Positions 23,539-52,550 of a stretch of 64,000 nucleotides of DNA are shown in pieces. The DNA comes from Escherichia coli (lineage in GTDB: Bacteria > Pseudomonadota > Gammaproteobacteria > Enterobacterales > Enterobacteriaceae): NCBI RefSeq assembly GCF_965641715.1, contig NZ_OZ282453.1. One strand, given 5' to 3'. Position numbers and translations under genes: made by a program. The first letter of the stretch is position 1; the number at the start of each line of letters is the position of its first letter. Below the pieces are notes generated by a model that saw nothing but the letters and a program-made list of their open reading frames with translations, made no database searches and was not told the origin of the DNA.

Positions 23539-23901
23539 TGGTGGAGCTGGCGGGAGTTGAACCCGCGTCCGAAATTCCTACATCCTCGGTACTACATGCT
23601 TAGTCAGTCTTTACATTCGCTTGCCAGCTGCGGACGGACACGCCACTAACAAACTAGCCTGATTAAGTTTTAACGCTTCAACCCCAGGCAGGGCTTCCAC
23701 GCGATCTCTTTTGGGTTTGACCTCTCTTGATCCCCGTCCTAAGAGCGGAGGCTAGGGAGAGAGGGCTCTAAGCAGGTTATTAAGCTGCTAAAGCGTAGTT
23801 TTCGTCGTTTGCGACTATTTTTTGCGGCTTTTTACGAGGCCAACCGCCCCTCGGCATGCACCTTGGGTTTCGCAAATCCCGTCGAATCCAGAATCAGCCC
23901 C
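23539..23901 (-). ncRNA. ssrA: tmRNA (SsrA), 363 nt
   Basis: Reverse complement matches the recalled E. coli tmRNA from 5' GGGGCUGAUUCUGGAUUCGACGGG... through the tag-encoding region to the 3' ...GGUUCAACUCCCGCCAGCUCCACCA. Confidence 0.97.
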
Positions 23902-40477: not shown

Positions 40478-41638
40478 TCAGGTTGGATCAACAGGCACTA
40501 CGTTCTCACTTGGGTAACAGCCCAATACCTTCATTGAACGGGTGATTTCCCCTAACTCTTTCAATGCTTTTTGCATTTCCGCTGATTCAAGATTGGCCTG
40601 AATATCCAGATAAAACATCTCTTCCCATGGATTACCGTGAATCGGGCGTGATTCCAGACGGGTCATAATCAGATTGTGGTTGCGCAGTACCAGCAACGCT
40701 TCAACCAGCGCACCGGCTTGTTGCCCGGTCGCCATTAACAACGTCGTTTTCGCCGGAACCTGATCAGACACGTTAATGGCTTTACGCGCCAACACCACAA
40801 ATCGGGTGAAGTTTTGTCGCTGATTCGCTTCAATCCGCTCCAGTACCTGCAAACCGTACAAAGTGCCGCCAGCTTCGCTTCCCAACGCAGCAACATGCGG
40901 TGATTTTGCCTGTGCAACCTTTTCCATTGCCGCAGACGTACTTTCGGTATATTCAATCTTCCAGTGCGGATAACGATTAAGGAATTTGCTGCATTGCTGG
41001 AATGGCTGCGGATGGCTGTAGACCGTATTGATGGTGGATAAATCAGTAGTGCCGGAGACCAACAAACAATGGTCGATAGTTAACGTCATCTCGCCAACAA
41101 TCGACAAGCTGGTATGTTGCAGCAGATCGTAAACGTCATTTATGGCACCGGAGCTGGTATTTTCAATCGGTACGACGGCATAGTCGGCCTGGCCGGTTTC
41201 CACCTGATTAAAAATATCGGCAAATTTGGCGCAGCCACTTTCAATGAATTGCTCAAAGTGACGGGCAGCATACTGGCGCGCCGCAAGATGGGAATAAGAA
41301 CCTTTGGGGCCGAGAAAAGCGATGCGTGCTGAGTGCGGATTAATTTTATTGAGATGTTGTTGGAGCAAAGCCTGCTGAGTTAATACGGAATCTTCAATGA
41401 TGAGCTGGAACAGGCGAGTAATGTAATGGGCGTCCAGATGGTGCGCTTTACCGAGCGTAATTAATCTTTCCAGTAAATCGCGTTCACGATCAATATCACG
41501 TACCGGGCGATGCGAGAGCAGTTTGGCTTTTCCCACCTCGACGGCCAGTTCGCGCCGCTCTGCGAGTAATGCTAATAATTTTTCATCCAGCGCGCTGATT
41601 TTCTCTCGCAGCGCCAGTAACGGGTTTTCCGATGTCAT
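40478..41638 (-). CDS. pheA: PheA chorismate mutase / prephenate dehydratase
   Basis: 386 aa [63 protein letters not shown]... Confidence 0.97.
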
Positions 41639-41661
41639 AGTGTTGCCTTTTTGTTATCAAT

Positions 41662-41688
41662 AAAAAAGGCCCCCCGATTTGGGAGGCC
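41662..41688 (-). terminator. pheA attenuator terminator
   Basis: Minus-strand hairpin GGCCTCCC-AAATC-GGGGGGCC followed by TTTTTT, between pheL and pheA. Confidence 0.85.
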
Positions 41689-41736
41689 TTATTGTTCGTC
41701 TTCGCATTCTGTTTCATACGACGAAACGCCTCCCAT

Positions 41737-41784
41737 TCAGGGGAAGGTAAAAAAGAATGCGAAGAAAAACGGTGTGTGTTTCAT
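41737..41784 (-). CDS. pheL: pheA leader peptide (Phe-rich), 15 aa
   Basis: Manual translation of the minus strand gives MKHTPFFFAFFFTFP-stop with seven Phe codons, classic attenuation leader. Confidence 0.9.
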   Translation of the reverse strand: MKHTPFFFAFFFTFP

Positions 41785-41840
41785 GTTTGTTTCCTTAAGT
41801 GACTTTAGTACAGTACCCGTACTGTTTTCACGCTGTCAAC

Positions 41841-41862
41841 AAAAAACGCGCCCGAAGGTGCG
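41841..41862 (-). terminator. Terminator-like hairpin immediately upstream of the pheA promoter (host side of the prophage junction)
   Basis: Minus-strand CGCACCTTCGGGCGCG hairpin followed by TTTTTT, abutting a TTGACA -35-like hexamer (plus 41834-41839). Confidence 0.5.
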
Positions 41863-41951
41863 TTGTAAAACCCACTGAATTCAATGTTTTCCCTTTGTTT
41901 TCAGTGGGTTTTGTTATTGGTGGGGGGTACTGATTACCCTATAAAACCCAC

Positions 41952-42974
41952 TTATGTGGATGAAATGTGGATGCCTCCTTTTAACGGATTAAGTGAAATT
42001 GCATCCTGGAGGAAATCAGGAGCGAGGTGCGCATAGGTCATAGTTTGCTGGATCGTGGCGTGCCCCATAATTCGCTGGAGCGTAAGTATATTTCCTCCAT
42101 TAATCATAAAGTGAGCTGCAAAGGTATGGCGTAGAACATGTACTGCCTGCCCTTTTGGTAGATCAGGTTTAACACTGCGAAGCACCTTGCGATATTCCTC
42201 ATAATTGACGTCAAACAAAAGGCCGGATTTCTTTGTTTTGATCTCGCTAACAACTTCATCAGAGACAGGAATAATTCGAACTTTTCCGTTTTTAGTTTTG
42301 TTAAACGTCACGCGGTTATTGATGATGTGTTCCGCGCGCAGATTTTTCGCTTCTCCCCATCTCGCACCAGTACTGAGACAAAGTAGCGTAATCCGCCGGG
42401 CATCACCGCTTACTGCATCCAGTAATTTGGCAATTTCTTCCGTGGTGAGATACGTCATTTCGGGTGATTTTCGTTTCAAAGAGGGGAGGGCGCGGAGCGG
42501 ATTTTCTCCGTGAAATTCCCCGGCATTTGCCAGGAGTGTAAACATTCCTCCGAGATCCGACTCATCACGCCGAACAGTAGACTCTTTTACTCCCAAAGAT
42601 AAACGGGAGCTTCGATAAGCGGCCATGAAACGAGCATTAATCTGGCTAACCCTTGGATCATTCATTTCTTTGATGATTTTTTTCAACCTGGTTAGAACGC
42701 CGTTAGCATATGGCTTATTGCGTCCACCCAATTCCCACCATAACGGAAGCAGATCTGAGAGATGACGTTGCTCTGTTGGCTTTTCAAGCCATTCCTTATC
42801 GTGCATGTGGCTGAGAACATAACGCTCAAAGGCCACTGCATCTGCCTTTTTCTTAAAAATCCGCTGAATCCGACGTCCACTTCGGCCACGCGGTCTAACA
42901 TCCACTTTATACCGTCCACCATCGAGTGCTTTAATTGCCATTGGCAAGCCCTCCGGTGAAACGAGGAAAGACAT
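41952..42974 (-). CDS. int: P2-type tyrosine integrase
   Basis: 340 aa ORF; ...RLKAEHIINNRVTFNKTKNGKVRIIPVSDEV...HVLRHTFAAHFMINGGNILTLQRIMGHATIQQTMTYAHLAPDFLQDAISLNPL closely resembles P2 Int as recalled (catalytic R...HxxR...Y). Confidence 0.93.
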   Translation of the reverse strand: MSFLVSPEGLPMAIKALDGGRYKVDVRPRGRSGRRIQRIFKKKADAVAFERYVLSHMHDKEWLEKPTEQRHLSDLLPLWWELGGRNKPYANGVLTRLKKIIKEMNDPRVSQINARFMAAYRSSRLSLGVKESTVRRDESDLGGMFTLLANAGEFHGENPLRALPSLKRKSPEMTYLTTEEIAKLLDAVSGDARRITLLCLSTGARWGEAKNLRAEHIINNRVTFNKTKNGKVRIIPVSDEVVSEIKTKKSGLLFDVNYEEYRKVLRSVKPDLPKGQAVHVLRHTFAAHFMINGGNILTLQRIMGHATIQQTMTYAHLAPDFLQDAISLNPLKGGIHISST

Positions 42975-43007
42975 TTCCAGTTTGTAAAACGTAAGAATAA
43001 TAAAGGG

Positions 43008-43310
43008 TTAACCAATTTTCCTTTCGGATGGGGGTAAATCCGTTGGTTCTTGCCCATAGTGTGCGAGAGCCGGAGCTATCTGCCCGGATTCAGGCGCAAT
43101 TTTTCCAGTCATAAACCACAACGCATATTTCTCAAATCTGGGGTTGTTTAGTATTTGCTCAATTACTTCAGCATTAGGGATAGTTTTACCGCTTTCATAT
43201 CTCCACAGAGCATCACGGTTTAAACCAAGCATTTTTGCTGTATCCGGGAGGCTAGTAAGTCTCTCGCTTTCACGCATGATTTTTATGCGCTCTCCAATAG
43301 TCATACGCAT
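43008..43310 (-). CDS. P2 C-type immunity repressor
   Basis: ORF 43008-43325 (start ambiguous among three in-frame ATGs); ...YALWFMTGKIAPESGQIAPALAHYGQEPT... matches the recalled P2 C repressor C-terminal region. Confidence 0.85.
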   Translation of the reverse strand: MRMTIGERIKIMRESERLTSLPDTAKMLGLNRDALWRYESGKTIPNAEVIEQILNNPRFEKYALWFMTGKIAPESGQIAPALAHYGQEPTDLPPSERKIG

Positions 43311-43405
43311 GTTGCAATTCTCCAACGTCTGTATTAATGTTTATACAAATGAGTTTGATTTGGGGCATCCGTCGCAAGAAATACCCCAAACAGGGAGATT
43401 ATCAC

Positions 43406-43732
43406 ATGAATGAAGAACTATTGAGGGCATTGTTTAAGATCCCAGACCCCATCACCGTCGATGAGTTTTCCCGCCGCACAGGTAAGACCGAATCAGCCGT
43501 AAGAAAGTTGGTAGAGCGTCGACTCATCCCTCTAACTACTGAGCGCGAGGTTTTAGGCGAGGAAGGGAGTTCGCGCCGTCTTCTCATCCTTTGGAATGAG
43601 TGGCTCGAAATGGTCTATGACGCAACGAAACAGCTTCCTCCTGAGCGTAAAGATTGGCGCAATCACTGGCTGAAGAAAGCCAAGAAGCTGGCGGAAGATT
43701 TGGGATTAGGTTTTCTTAATTTTGCTGCATGA
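43406..43732 (+). CDS. cox: Cox-like excisionase / transcriptional switch protein
   Basis: Divergent from the repressor gene; GGGAG RBS; HTH-like segment DEFSRRTGKTESAVRKLVERRLIPL resembles P2 Cox. Confidence 0.7.
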   Translation: MNEELLRALFKIPDPITVDEFSRRTGKTESAVRKLVERRLIPLTTEREVLGEEGSSRRLLILWNEWLEMVYDATKQLPPERKDWRNHWLKKAKKLAEDLGLGFLNFAA

Positions 43733-46049: not shown

Positions 46050-46371
46050 GAAACCAGAGCATGCACACACAAAAAAACCGCTTGCCATGCCGCAATCAGT
46101 CAGGTTACATTTTCGCTGCACCTCATAAAACGGGTGCCGGGTTTCGCAGCCTGCTGACAACCAAAGCGCACAACCGCGCCAGCGGTTTTTTTGTGCGTAC
46201 TGTATTGCCACGTTTTTTTCGCGTCAGAATTATGGCGGGGCGTACGGGGCCGACTTCGGTCGGGCCGGGTTCTTTGGTTGCCGGTACTGCGAACCCCGTA
46301 CGTCTCGCCACCCACAGTTTCGCAGCTCTGGATGGTGAGTTTTCAAAACTTACAACCAAAGAGGCCACACC

Positions 46372-46602
46372 ATGGCAAACCGCAAACAGCACCGCGCTAT
46401 CGCGGAGCGTCGTCACATCCAGACTGAAATCAACCGCAGACTTTCCCGCGCATTCCGCGTCGCTAAAATCATGCACATCAATATGCTGCATGAGCGTAGC
46501 TGCGAACTTTCAAACCTCTACTCATCCGCTGTTTTCAGCTATCTGGCGGATGATCTGCGCGAGCTTCAACAGCTCATCCAGCAGCAAAACAAACTCCATT
46601 AA
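46372..46602 (+). CDS. Hypothetical prophage early protein (76 aa)
   Basis: ORF with AGAGG RBS; protein-like composition, unlike the overlapping 205-aa ORF in another frame. Confidence 0.5.
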   Translation: MANRKQHRAIAERRHIQTEINRRLSRAFRVAKIMHINMLHERSCELSNLYSSAVFSYLADDLRELQQLIQQQNKLH

Positions 46603-46674
46603 TTCCTGTTCCGGGCCTTTCCTGCACCTTGCGGCGGGAGGCCTTCGCACATCTGTAACAAGAGGATTGCCGCA

Positions 46675-47040
46675 ATGATTCTCGCCAACGACTTTCTTGA
46701 ATACCTGCTCAACACAGAGCGTGATCTTGCCGCTCGCGTACGTGATCGTTATGACATGTATCTGAAATCCCTGCCTGTACCGCAGCTCGCTGACGGAAAG
46801 ATTGTTATTGATGGTCGCTACATGATTGACAGCCACGAGGGAAATTACAGGCTTTACCGCATTGAAGGTGGCACCCCGTCCGTTATTGGCATTTACCAGC
46901 GCCCATCCTCTGCAATCGTCGATGTGATTGCCGACAGCATCCGCATCACACATCGCCATGCCGACACAGAAGACACCGTGCTGGAAATTCAGCGGCTGGC
47001 TGCCGTCTGCCGCGACACCCTGAATGGCATGACGAAGTAA
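46675..47040 (+). CDS. Hypothetical prophage early protein (121 aa), immediately upstream of replication gene A
   Basis: ORF with GAGGA RBS; occupies the position of P2 early/replication accessory genes. Confidence 0.55.
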   Translation: MILANDFLEYLLNTERDLAARVRDRYDMYLKSLPVPQLADGKIVIDGRYMIDSHEGNYRLYRIEGGTPSVIGIYQRPSSAIVDVIADSIRITHRHADTEDTVLEIQRLAAVCRDTLNGMTK

Positions 47041-49945: not shown

Positions 49946-50905
49946 ATGAAAATTTGTATCGACGACGGCTCCACCAACATCAAGCTGGCATGGACTGAGA
50001 ACGGCGAACGCCGCAACGCCATCAGCCCGAACAGCTTCAAGTCGGAATGGTCTGCGCCGTTCGGTGGCTCGCAGCCCGCGAACTACATGCTTGATGGCGT
50101 GCGCTATGGTTTTGATCCGGTCAGCGATCGCTTTGTCCAGACGACCGACACGCAATACCAGTACAGCGATGTGAATGTCATTGCCATTCATCACGCGCTG
50201 GTCAAATCAGGCATCACGCCACAGGAGGTGGATGTGGTTGTCACCCTGCCATTGAGCGAGTATTTCGACACAAACGCACAGCCGGACATGGCCAACATCA
50301 GCCGCAAAAAAGCGAACGTTATGCGCCCGGTGGAGTACCAGAACGGCGAAACATTCACTATCCGTAACGTACGGGTTATGCCTGAATCCATTCCGGCTGG
50401 CTTTAAAGCACTGGCTGACATGAGTCCGCTTGAATCCCTGCTGATTGTGGATTTGGGCGGAACCACACTGGATGTGGCAAAGGTTCAGGGGCAACTGGCA
50501 GGTATCAGCCAGGTGTTTTGCGATCCACACGTAGGCGTTTCCCTGATGGCCGATGCCGTACTGTCGGTGATGGCCACTAACGGTATGCGTATCAGTCACC
50601 ACATCGCCAATACCATTATCGAACATCGCCATGATGAAGCCTGGTTGCGCCAGCACATCCACAATGACGCGCATTACGCCAGCCTGATGGCGGTTATTCG
50701 TGAAAAGGAAGAAACACTGAAACAACGCGTGATCCGCGCGCTGGCGGTTTTTTCGGGTTACGGGCGGGTGATGGTTGTCGGTGGCGGGGCGGAGATTGTG
50801 GCACCCGCTATCCGCGAAGCCTGCGGAGTTAATGCGACTTTCATCGCGGACGGGGTGCCACAGTTTGCTCTGGTTAATGGGCTGTACGCAATGGACAAGG
50901 AGTAA
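49946..50905 (+). CDS. ParM/StbA-like actin-fold ATPase (319 aa)
   Basis: N-terminus MKICIDDGSTNIKLAWTE...ISPNSFKSEW...YQYSDVNVIAIHHALVKSGI...LIVDLGGTTLDVA... matches the recalled plasmid R1 ParM phosphate-1/connect/phosphate-2 motifs; strong RBS. Confidence 0.8.
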   Translation: MKICIDDGSTNIKLAWTENGERRNAISPNSFKSEWSAPFGGSQPANYMLDGVRYGFDPVSDRFVQTTDTQYQYSDVNVIAIHHALVKSGITPQEVDVVVTLPLSEYFDTNAQPDMANISRKKANVMRPVEYQNGETFTIRNVRVMPESIPAGFKALADMSPLESLLIVDLGGTTLDVAKVQGQLAGISQVFCDPHVGVSLMADAVLSVMATNGMRISHHIANTIIEHRHDEAWLRQHIHNDAHYASLMAVIREKEETLKQRVIRALAVFSGYGRVMVVGGGAEIVAPAIREACGVNATFIADGVPQFALVNGLYAMDKE

Positions 50906-50909
50906 ACCA

Positions 50910-51221
50910 ATGACGACTCCAACCAGACGGATAAGTTTCTATCTGAAGCCCGCCGCCGTCAAGAACGAAGGTGAAGCATGCGCCTGGCTGGACAGCCTTA
51001 CACCAGAAGCGCGCAAAAGCGGCCAACGCGTGGCTTTTCTGGCCGGGCTGGCACTTCTGAAAATGAATCCGGCAGAGGCTTACCGACTGGCTGCATGGGC
51101 TGATGATGAAGCGTTATCAGTGACACAAACCAGGACAGAACGCCCCGCGTCACAGCCAGTATCAACCGCACAGATAACCAGTCAGATGGCCGGAAATATC
51201 CGGGCGTTATTTCCCGAATAA
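50910..51221 (+). CDS. ParR-like small DNA-binding protein (103 aa), partner of the ParM-like ATPase
   Basis: ORF 50775-51221 with probable start MTTPTRRISFYLKPAAV...; RRISFYLKP...RVAFLAGLALLKMNP...NIRALFPE parallels recalled R1 ParR (RRTIAFKLNP...RAALTAGLALYRQDP...ILRSLFPKE); 4-nt gap after parM-like gene. Confidence 0.7.
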   Translation: MTTPTRRISFYLKPAAVKNEGEACAWLDSLTPEARKSGQRVAFLAGLALLKMNPAEAYRLAAWADDEALSVTQTRTERPASQPVSTAQITSQMAGNIRALFPE

Positions 51222-51284
51222 CACAACATCAGGGCGCATCCGCCCTGATGACTTTAACCCGGGAACATAAACAAGGGGGACACA

Positions 51285-51620
51285 ATGCAACGCATTGACA
51301 GAGAAAAAGCGCAGCGACTGATTGAGCGGATGGAAGCGCTGGCGAAAGAAGAAAATGTCAACATCCAAAAAATAGCTGAATGTGGCCAGATAGTTCTTCG
51401 TCGTGAAAAAGACCTCAAACAACTGATGTCTGGCGAAACCAGCAAAACATGGACTTCAGGTGAGGAGACGATTTATTGCAGCTTCTGCAATAAATCCCAG
51501 TACGAAGTCACAAAGGTGATTGCCGGACCGTCTGTTTACATCTGCAATGAGTGCGTTGATTTGTGCAATGAAGTTATCAGGAGAGAAGTGACAGACCATG
51601 AAGAAAAAACGCATGAATGA
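51285..51620 (+). CDS. Small protein with C-terminal ClpX-type C4 zinc-binding domain (111 aa)
   Basis: [40 protein letters not shown] is near-identical in pattern to the ClpX N-terminal ZBD ([39 protein letters not shown] as recalled); N-terminal 60 aa predicted helical; own AAGGGGGA RBS. Confidence 0.8.
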
Positions 51621-51786
51621 CGAATTTGACGGCTTTTAATTTTATCGGGGCGCACTGTCGCCCTGCATGGAGAAAAACAATAAAAAAGATGAATAACTGC
51701 TCATGTCAGACGCGCTGCGGGCAAGTCTGGCACCCTGCCCTGTCTCCGCAAAGGCTGTTGTCTTAACACGACAGAGTATGCCAGCA

Positions 51787-52194
51787 TTAAATATAATCTT
51801 CTTCGTAGTCGCTGATTAATTCATTGCCATAATCAGACAGCAATTTCAAAGCAAAGGTAACTTCCTCAAGGGTAGCTATCCCCATTGCTGAAAACACCGT
51901 TAATTTAACCAGCAGCAGGGAGTTTGAAAGTTCGGAAGAGTTCATCATTAAAAATATTGATGCAGCCTGAAAAGCTGTGCGTTTATTCCCATCATGAAAG
52001 GCATGAGCCTTGGCTATACCAATCAAATACATAGCAGCCAGAGCATGAATATCATCAACCCCTTCATAGTAGTGTAGTGTCCTGACGCGATTTAAAGCAC
52101 CTTCAAGTAGCCCGTCATTGGCATTTCCGCTCTGGGGTAAAGTTTCAGCATGGATACGTTCTACTTGTTCTTTTGACAAAAACACTATGTCCAT
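51787..52194 (-). CDS. Doc-like (Fic/Doc family) toxin
   Basis: 135 aa ORF with Doc-type Fic motif HAFHDGNKRTA (HxFx[D/N]GNKR); start overlaps stop of upstream antitoxin-like gene. Confidence 0.8.
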   Translation of the reverse strand: MDIVFLSKEQVERIHAETLPQSGNANDGLLEGALNRVRTLHYYEGVDDIHALAAMYLIGIAKAHAFHDGNKRTAFQAASIFLMMNSSELSNSLLLVKLTVFSAMGIATLEEVTFALKLLSDYGNELISDYEEDYI

Positions 52195-52550
52195 CAGTTA
52201 TCCTCAAGCTTTTTAATGATATCCGCATGTTTTTCTCTTGTACGCTTCATTGCATCTTCAAAAGACAATCCTTTTTTTCTCTGTGCGACAAGAGCTGGAT
52301 GACGTTTTTCCAGATCTCTCACTGCATTTATTAAGAGTGGTTGCTTCATTTTGTTTATTTGATCCCGCAGTTTTTTGGTTTTGCCAAGGACAGCCCGTAT
52401 TTCAGGACTAAGATCAGAACCAGCAAGAACAACATCCTTCCCTCCCTGCGCCGTGATAACGACACTGCCACCGGAAGAAAGGTAATCCAGAATTTCACTC
52501 AGGTTCTCACGAAATTCATCATCAGTTACAGTTTTCATATTCATTTCCAT
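52194..52550 (-). CDS. Phd/YefM-like antitoxin with extended C-terminal region (118 aa; start ambiguous among three ATGs)
   Basis: N-terminal MKTVTDDEFRENLSEILDYLSSGGSVVITAQGGKDVVLAGSDL resembles the Phd/YefM fold; basic C-terminal 60 aa; overlaps doc-like gene (ATGA arrangement). Confidence 0.7.
   Translation of the reverse strand: MEMNMKTVTDDEFRENLSEILDYLSSGGSVVITAQGGKDVVLAGSDLSPEIRAVLGKTKKLRDQINKMKQPLLINAVRDLEKRHPALVAQRKKGLSFEDAMKRTREKHADIIKKLEDN

Follow-up and report, generated by a model that had tools for sequence, protein, structure and literature searches.

In phage P2, the attP region as annotated in the GenBank record runs from the ogr terminator through an Int P-arm site, an IHF site, a 27-bp core and a 74-bp Cox-binding region to an Int P'-arm site that overlaps the 3' end of int. 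The published consensus for arm sites of the P2 type is tgTGGaCa (PMC3448106). The cox boxes at P2 attP face both ways (PMC3936717). Integrases that target tRNA or tmRNA genes, such as those of phage 186 (ileY) and Fels-2/SopEΦ (ssrA), follow a comparable logic: the host element is structured and dyad-symmetric, the phage brings its own version of the 3' part, and integration regenerates the element. A further described relative is Klebsiella phage 3LV2017 (Reginaelenavirus), whose core is a GC hairpin followed by a T-run, that is, a terminator (AAACCCGGAGCACTCCGGGTT).

Here we describe a member of the P2 family at another host target. In the 64-kb stretch of Escherichia coli DNA analysed (the window), we assign positions 41839–41975 to attL of a P2-family (Peduoviridae) prophage that has probably integrated at the terminator of raiA, a reading to which we give a probability of about 0.9. 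The piece at 41785–41951, judged from its alignment with other genomes, is the attL junction of this prophage beside the pheL/pheA promoter. As in 186, Fels-2 and SopEΦ, the phage would bring a copy of a structured, dyad-symmetric host element that is regenerated on integration. In contrast to these phages, the target is the terminator of a protein gene instead of an RNA gene, and the arm-type sites are of the P2 type and not of the 186 type. The features are collected in Table 1.

Table 1. Features of the host flank, the attL junction and the adjoining prophage (positions in the window).
Feature	Position	Strand	Basis or remark
pheA (host)	40478–41638	-	386-aa ORF; named pheA in collinear genomes
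Phe leader/attenuator including pheL	41660–41785	-	Rfam RF01859 (Phe_leader), 128.6 bits
pheL	41737–41784	-	from the sequence itself and by mapping the RefSeq annotation of the collinear locus L002
TTGACA hexamer of the pheL/pheA promoter	41834–41839 (tgtcaa)	-	sequence; shares 1 bp with the att core
att core, attL copy, ACAAAAAACGCGCCCGAAGGTGCGTTG	41839–41865		27 bp; also at the K-12 empty site, both ends of the DSM 103246 prophage and attP
Terminator hairpin	stem 41845–41852/41857–41864; loop 41853–41856; T-run 41839–41846	-	
GAAGG, inferred strand-exchange (overlap) region	41854–41858		secondary-site insertions and a second phage
Phage-allele T	41859		C in attB and attR; gives an A·C mismatch in the terminator stem at attL
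P' arm spacer of attL (phage DNA)	41866–41953		in attP, absent from empty sites; position of the P2 Cox-binding interval
Inverted repeat AAAACCCACTGA/TCAGTGGGTTTT	41867–41912		perfect 12-bp arms 41867–41878/41901–41912, 22-bp spacer
Third TAAAACCCACT copy	41942–41952	+	direct repeat of 41866–41876; abuts the arm-type sites
Two putative arm-type Int-binding repeats, ATGTGGATG	41954–41973	+	11 bp apart; overlap the int 3' end
int, P2-type tyrosine integrase, 329 aa	41952–42941	-	PHROG 1, E = 4e-70; WP_000974887.1 at the same position in L002
P2 C-type immunity repressor	43008–43310	-	PHROG 147, E = 9e-32; 52% identical to P2 C
Cox-like protein, candidate recombination directionality factor	43406–43732	+	PHROG 11919; weak PHROG 272 (Cox-like excisionase), E = 2e-4; cox position as in P2
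Remaining prophage in the window (gpA endonuclease, cargo, portal, terminase, capsid, tail)	43733–64000		continues beyond the window

The assignment is carried by the comparison of empty and occupied sites, which confirms that a P2-type prophage junction adjoins the pheL/pheA promoter, as the preliminary description had proposed. A 421-nt probe spanning the junction was searched against 5,426 complete E. coli genomes and matched in 5,425. In about 5,300 genomes without the prophage, the match ends at query position 226, corresponding to position 41865 of the window, and only 124 genomes are matched across the junction. Host homology thus reaches 41865, slightly past the limit of about 41862 given in the preliminary description. 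In K-12, the core occurs once, in the order pheL, 27-bp core, raiA, with ACAAAAAACGCGCCCGAAGGCGCGTTG following the TTGACA hexamer and with C, not T, at the position equivalent to 41859; the raiA stop codon lies ~22–23 bp beyond the core. E. coli DSM 103246 has the same junction (99.8% identity), and there the 27-mer bounds a 35-kb P2-type prophage at both ends, so that the direct repeat expected at attR is found in this genome. The empty site, together with the two copies flanking the DSM 103246 prophage, defines the att core as 41839–41865.

No raiA sequence is present anywhere in the 64-kb window (blastn), in line with the earlier statement that the gene is missing on this side. The window ends before attR, and the source genome is absent from the complete-genome set, where the best match has a coverage of 92–95% and an identity of 95–97%; the integrity of the far junction is therefore read from relatives and not from the source genome. 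In DSM 103246, intact raiA, bamD and rluD follow the far copy of the core. On this evidence raiA is displaced to the far end of the prophage, being intact there in all comparable genomes examined, and in the source genome it would lie ~35 kb away, at attR.

The host elements named in the preliminary description, namely the pheA attenuator, pheL, the TTGACA hexamer and a terminator-like hairpin, were each found at the positions given for them. The hexamer is presumably the -35 element of the pheA promoter, as established for K-12. The hairpin had been regarded as part of the host flank. It is indeed there, but it is more than flanking sequence, since it belongs to the att core itself: by its predicted fold, the core is the rho-independent terminator of raiA, with a stem-loop followed by a T-run. 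Read on the minus strand, which is the sense strand of raiA, the host 27-mer is CAACGCGCC-UUCG-GGCGCGUUUUUUGU; it starts 22 nt past the raiA stop codon and forms a GC-rich stem of 8 bp with a UUCG loop and a U6 run (-14.4 kcal/mol as RNA). As the phage core covers both the stem-loop and the T-run, the terminator is rebuilt at both junctions.

The two rebuilt copies are not equivalent. An unintegrated attP, present in the IMG/VR contig L009, has T at the position of 41859, and this identifies T41859 as the phage allele. The order in this attP is DNA methylase, terminator, ATGTGGACAGTTTGTGGATG, 37 bp, ACAAAAAACGCGCCCGAAGGTGCGTTG and TAAAACCCACTGAATTC…. The sequence from T41859 onward is accordingly assigned to the phage by comparison, while the promoter-proximal sequence at attL is the same as in the host up to 41858. 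With its single mismatch, the attL copy of the terminator folds at -9.0 kcal/mol, compared with -14.4 kcal/mol for the host copy, and it is not among the terminators called by a simple scan. At attR the copy is of the host type over its whole length, T-run included, which leaves raiA with a perfect terminator.

The presence of T in attL and C in attR indicates that strands were exchanged left of 41859, and natural insertions elsewhere narrow it further. In the plasmid pCREC455-3, a secondary-site insertion has an attL that reads …ctccaaGAAGGtgcgttgtaaaaccc and an attR that reads …cgcgcccGAAGGagcattgac, and only GAAGG is common to both. Another junction outside raiA, in the IMG/VR contig L063, is broken at the same point. 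A third indication comes from the lambdoid prophage of strain 1604D011, whose core is AAAGCACC-CGAA-GGTGCTTT and shares only CCCGAAGG(T) with the host. These observations suggest an overlap region at about 41851–41858, in and beside the loop of the hairpin. The position of the crossover is thus obtained from natural secondary-site insertions, without experiment. The plasmid itself (NZ_CP183151.1) is a 129-kb P1-like phage-plasmid with pacase, lytic replication protein, Icd-like and cin-type recombinase genes; it carries a complete copy of the P2-family phage inside a tail-fibre gene, so that one phage is integrated into another.

In the mechanism that we propose, a heterobivalent tyrosine integrase would recombine the 27-bp phage core with the identical host sequence (the C/T position aside). 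The inverted stem arms of the terminator would act as two core-type Int sites, as suggested by the general core architecture of tyrosine recombinases, and strands would be exchanged in the GAAGG loop region. The N-terminal domain of Int would bind the arm-type repeats, namely the two copies of ATGTGGATG on one side and the P-arm pair on the other.

The integrase supports the P2-type assignment. Its stop codon (41952–41954) lies 86 bp past the core, in accordance with the earlier remark that the 3' end of a P2-type integrase gene begins within 90 bp of the junction. Int is 54% identical to P2 Int over its full length, with the ARWGE, HxLRH and Y motifs conserved, and is 100% identical (tblastn) to the int product of 28 IMG/VR contigs. 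A nucleotide search with 41860–43400 gave no match in the sequenced-phage collection, where no isolated phage has this int/attP at an identity of at least 85%. The closest integrase of that collection is that of 3LV2017, with 64% identity overall and 80% in the N-terminal domain.

The organization of the att region follows that of P2 attP/locI: a terminator, P-arm repeats, a spacer, the 27-bp core, a second spacer, and P'-arm repeats over the 3' end of int, followed by int, C and cox. Even the distances are similar, with 37 bp here and 35 bp in P2 from the P-arm repeats to the core, and 88 and 87 bp, respectively, from the core to the P'-arm repeats. The C proteins are related to a similar degree as the integrases (Table 1), and the arm repeats are of the tgTGGaCa type. 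Both copies of ATGTGGATG fit this consensus (PMC3448106), and a matching pair, ATGTGGACAGTTTGTGGATG, is found in the P arm. The two systems differ in the core and in the target, which is the raiA terminator here and locI in P2, in the weak relationship of the Cox-like protein, and in the variant of the arm repeat, GGATG here and GGACA in P2. This variant tracks the similarity of the Int N-terminal domain, which has 73–80% identity to the group with GGATG and 58–65% to the group with GGACA, supporting a role of the repeats as arm-type sites. 3LV2017 and related IMG/VR prophages share the GGATG repeats and also have an inverted repeat next to the core, whereas 3LV2017 targets a different terminator and its P' arm has a different sequence. 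We considered a hybrid integrase with a core-binding domain taken from the other lineages that target raiA, and found no sign of it, as residues 56–170 are about equally diverged from all of them (31–55%).

The P' spacer is a further point of difference from P2, in that it contains a perfect 12-bp inverted repeat and no recognisable TTAAAG/CNCA cox boxes. The repeat is found exactly where the preliminary description had placed it. On the int-sense strand it folds as RNA at -20.4 kcal/mol (z = -6.2), and none of 200 shuffled sequences is as stable. Over the whole 64 kb, AAAACCCACT has three exact copies, all of which fall within the 86-bp interval between core and int, and the exact occurrences of TAAAACCCACT in the same 64 kb are likewise only the three in the P' arm. 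The poly-G run at 41922–41927 is variable, with G6 here, G7 in DSM 103246, and G5 followed by T in both the plasmid copy and attP.

We consider the inverted repeat and the third TAAAACCCACT copy most likely to be P'-arm elements that would serve as sites for accessory proteins (the Cox-like factor, or Int or IHF architecture). The more specific reading, in which the three TAAAACCCACT copies are bound by the Cox-like directionality factor, or provide additional architectural sites for Int or IHF, and shape the intasome or excisome in the manner of the P2 cox boxes, is held tentatively, at slightly below even odds. It is favoured by the location of the copies in the interval that corresponds to the annotated Cox footprint of P2, by the confinement of three exact copies to 86 bp, by their arrangement in both directions, as in the cox boxes of P2 attP (PMC3936717), and by the resemblance of the motif to core half-sites; in addition, the repeat spacers of L008 (the 1604D011 phage) and L076 (Citrobacter sp. 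R56) contain a perfect IHF consensus. The motifs themselves are not cox-box-like, though they lie within the Cox-equivalent interval. A P2-style Cox would also bind in the C–cox intergenic switch, but no copy of TAAAACCCACT was found in that region. Moreover, relatives with Cox-like proteins of 67–72% identity have repeats of unrelated sequence, and the spacing of the copies (36, 40 and 76 bp) shows no simple phasing of 10–11 bp. AACCCACTGA recurs ~35 bp from the core in the IMG/VR contig L074, whose Cox-like protein is only 24% identical. A scan of the P' arm for the IHF consensus revealed no site with at most one mismatch, and the best candidate by eye is ATTCAATGTTTTC, with two mismatches. 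In the Citrobacter phage the inverted repeat of the P' arm flanks the perfect IHF consensus AATCAATATGTTA.

A less probable alternative is that the repeat acts mainly at the RNA level, as an intrinsic terminator or stabilising 3' hairpin of the C–int transcript that would insulate pheL/pheA together with the hybrid raiA terminator. The repeat is located just downstream of the int stop codon and folds strongly on the int-sense strand, and a repeat capable of forming a hairpin, although of different sequence, occurs at the same place in every relative examined. In agreement with this, the only natural variant (L034) changes an A-U pair to G·U on the int-sense strand. Inverted repeats of unrelated sequence were found in this interval in P2, 3LV2017, L060, L066–68, L074, the 1604D011 phage and Citrobacter sp. 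R56. Against an RNA function, a 22-nt loop without a clean U-tract after the stem is atypical, and the terminator scan does not call the structure. The antisense folds are equally or more stable in most relatives; comparison of sense and antisense folding of the P' arms of nine phages showed no asymmetry. An RNA hairpin also leaves the third, unpaired copy of the motif at 41942–41952 unexplained. For these reasons we regard a predominantly RNA-level role as doubtful, while the repeat, as a P'-arm element, may in addition form a hairpin at the 3' end of the int mRNA. Retroregulation of int of the lambda sib type was considered separately and rejected, since the repeat lies between int and the core and is not separated from int in either attP or attL.

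It is very unlikely that we are dealing with the scar of a rearrangement or with what is left of a decayed prophage, as opposed to one end of a phage that is functional and was integrated site-specifically. In favour of a remnant, no more than 22 kb of the element can be seen, and its cargo regions differ from those of the nearest relatives. On the other hand, the int, C and cox-like genes are all intact, and what can be seen of the element is collinear with complete prophages of 35 kb that have direct repeats at their ends. In addition, the attP form is present in a metagenome, and the insertions are spread over diverse strains and secondary sites. Of the two origins that the preliminary description had offered for the inverted repeat, that of a part of attL stands, whereas a displaced host terminator (of raiA or another host gene), despite a stable, intergenic hairpin with A/T runs at the base of the stem, is rejected as having practically no chance, because the empty raiA–pheL site lacks the repeat, because unintegrated attP and the plasmid copy at a secondary site both have it, and because it lies next to a core that is the true raiA terminator.

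The int gene is transcribed toward pheL. The C–int transcript passes the phage hairpin and runs into the one-mismatch copy of the terminator with its U-run, located immediately ahead of the TTGACA hexamer; the pheL/pheA promoter itself is unchanged. This order of int, hairpin, terminator and pheL mimics the native order of raiA, terminator and pheL with a weaker terminator, and read-through from int into pheL is possible. In any case, pheA would still be gated by its own attenuator. No outward-facing promoter-like site was found in 41866–41951.

The site is occupied in a small proportion of E. coli. The raiA–pheL interval is uninterrupted in 5,273 of the 5,426 complete genomes and split in 152. 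Both the attL and attR junctions of the P2-type insertion were found in 124 genomes, and another 28 genomes have an attR-side identity in the band of 90–95%, the two numbers adding up to the 152 split sites. As this band is what a junction of the lambdoid type would give, about 28 complete genomes appear to be of the 1604D011 type. The prophage of 1604D011 (NZ_CP149553.1) has a length of ~49 kb and is lambdoid, with a Q antiterminator, an HK97-type head, a lambda-type tail, Lom and IS elements. It resembles the present prophage in having attB beside pheL, a crossover in CCCGAAGG, the T allele in the core and a P2-type int–C–cox module; it differs in its Int (58% identical), in its core arms AAAGCACC/GGTGCTTT and in the lambdoid nature of the rest of the phage.

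Altogether, three other P2-type Int lineages, with 57–59% identity to the present one, were found at the same terminator beside pheL: those of 1604D011, Citrobacter sp. R56 and L074, and the four lineages are 57–65% identical to one another. Among GTDB species representatives, the hybrid-core pattern is present in two Citrobacter genomes. The one examined, Citrobacter sp. R56, has the order tyrA–pheA–pheL–core–int and an Int with 58% identity. In L074, from another genus, the same core lies by a divergent pheL leader, and Int is 59% identical. Sister integrases (3LV2017, L060 and L066–68) are located ~90 nt from other terminators consisting of a GC hairpin and a T-run, all in the orientation that would terminate int; the att sites are annotated for 3LV2017, and the cores of L060 and L066–68 are inferred from position only. 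The occurrence of four lineages at the raiA terminator, across E. coli, Citrobacter and another genus, together with this sister group on other terminators, raises the possibility that intrinsic terminator hairpins are the regular attB of P2-type integrases in this clade, with the stem arms as inverted core-type sites, the loop as overlap and the phage core as the terminator of the phage's own int transcript. We put this forward as a conjecture that may well prove too broad.

We found no description of a raiA/yfiA–pheL attachment site for P2-type phages in the searchable open literature, and the 2011 survey of P2 integrases does not name the raiA site in its text. A 2026 preprint reports 30 genomic spots of P2/P4 in E. 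coli, with the att pairs placed in its supplement, and the spot at the raiA terminator has probably already been catalogued there in bulk. The biology is ordinary, a case of textbook site-specific integration at a well-defined but unremarkable site. Beyond annotation it matters little: the att site is now defined to the base pair and is occupied in ~2.8% of complete E. coli genomes, and the insertion neither inactivates raiA nor alters the pheL/pheA promoter. It does provide a clean example of a terminator as an integration target.

On the host side, the window also contains ssrA (23539–23901) and a tRNA with a CAT anticodon (15668–15743), which is probably ileY, where phage 186 has its att site. 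No island is apparent at either gene, to judge by how the genes are named in the best matches to positions 1–24000 of the window. These matches are only 97.7–98.4% identical, and the host backbone may be somewhat diverged from the sequenced complete genomes.

The visible prophage is collinear with that of DSM 103246 at 90–99% identity. The gpA-type replication endonuclease matches PHROG 91, and portal, terminase, P2-family capsid and tail genes are present in the collinear locus L002. In the early region, an ORF at 46061–46678, named 'ash family protein' in the RefSeq homologue, contains or adjoins Rfam matches to isrK (46118–46192) and C4 antisense RNA (46228–46315) on the plus strand, that is, an antisense immunity module of the P1/P7 type within a P2-type prophage. 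Between gpA and portal lies a cargo hotspot (49946–52550) with a ParM-like partition gene (49946–50905, PHROG 691) and, on the minus strand, a Doc/Phd-like toxin–antitoxin pair (51787–52550), in place of which DSM 103246 has a YafO toxin.
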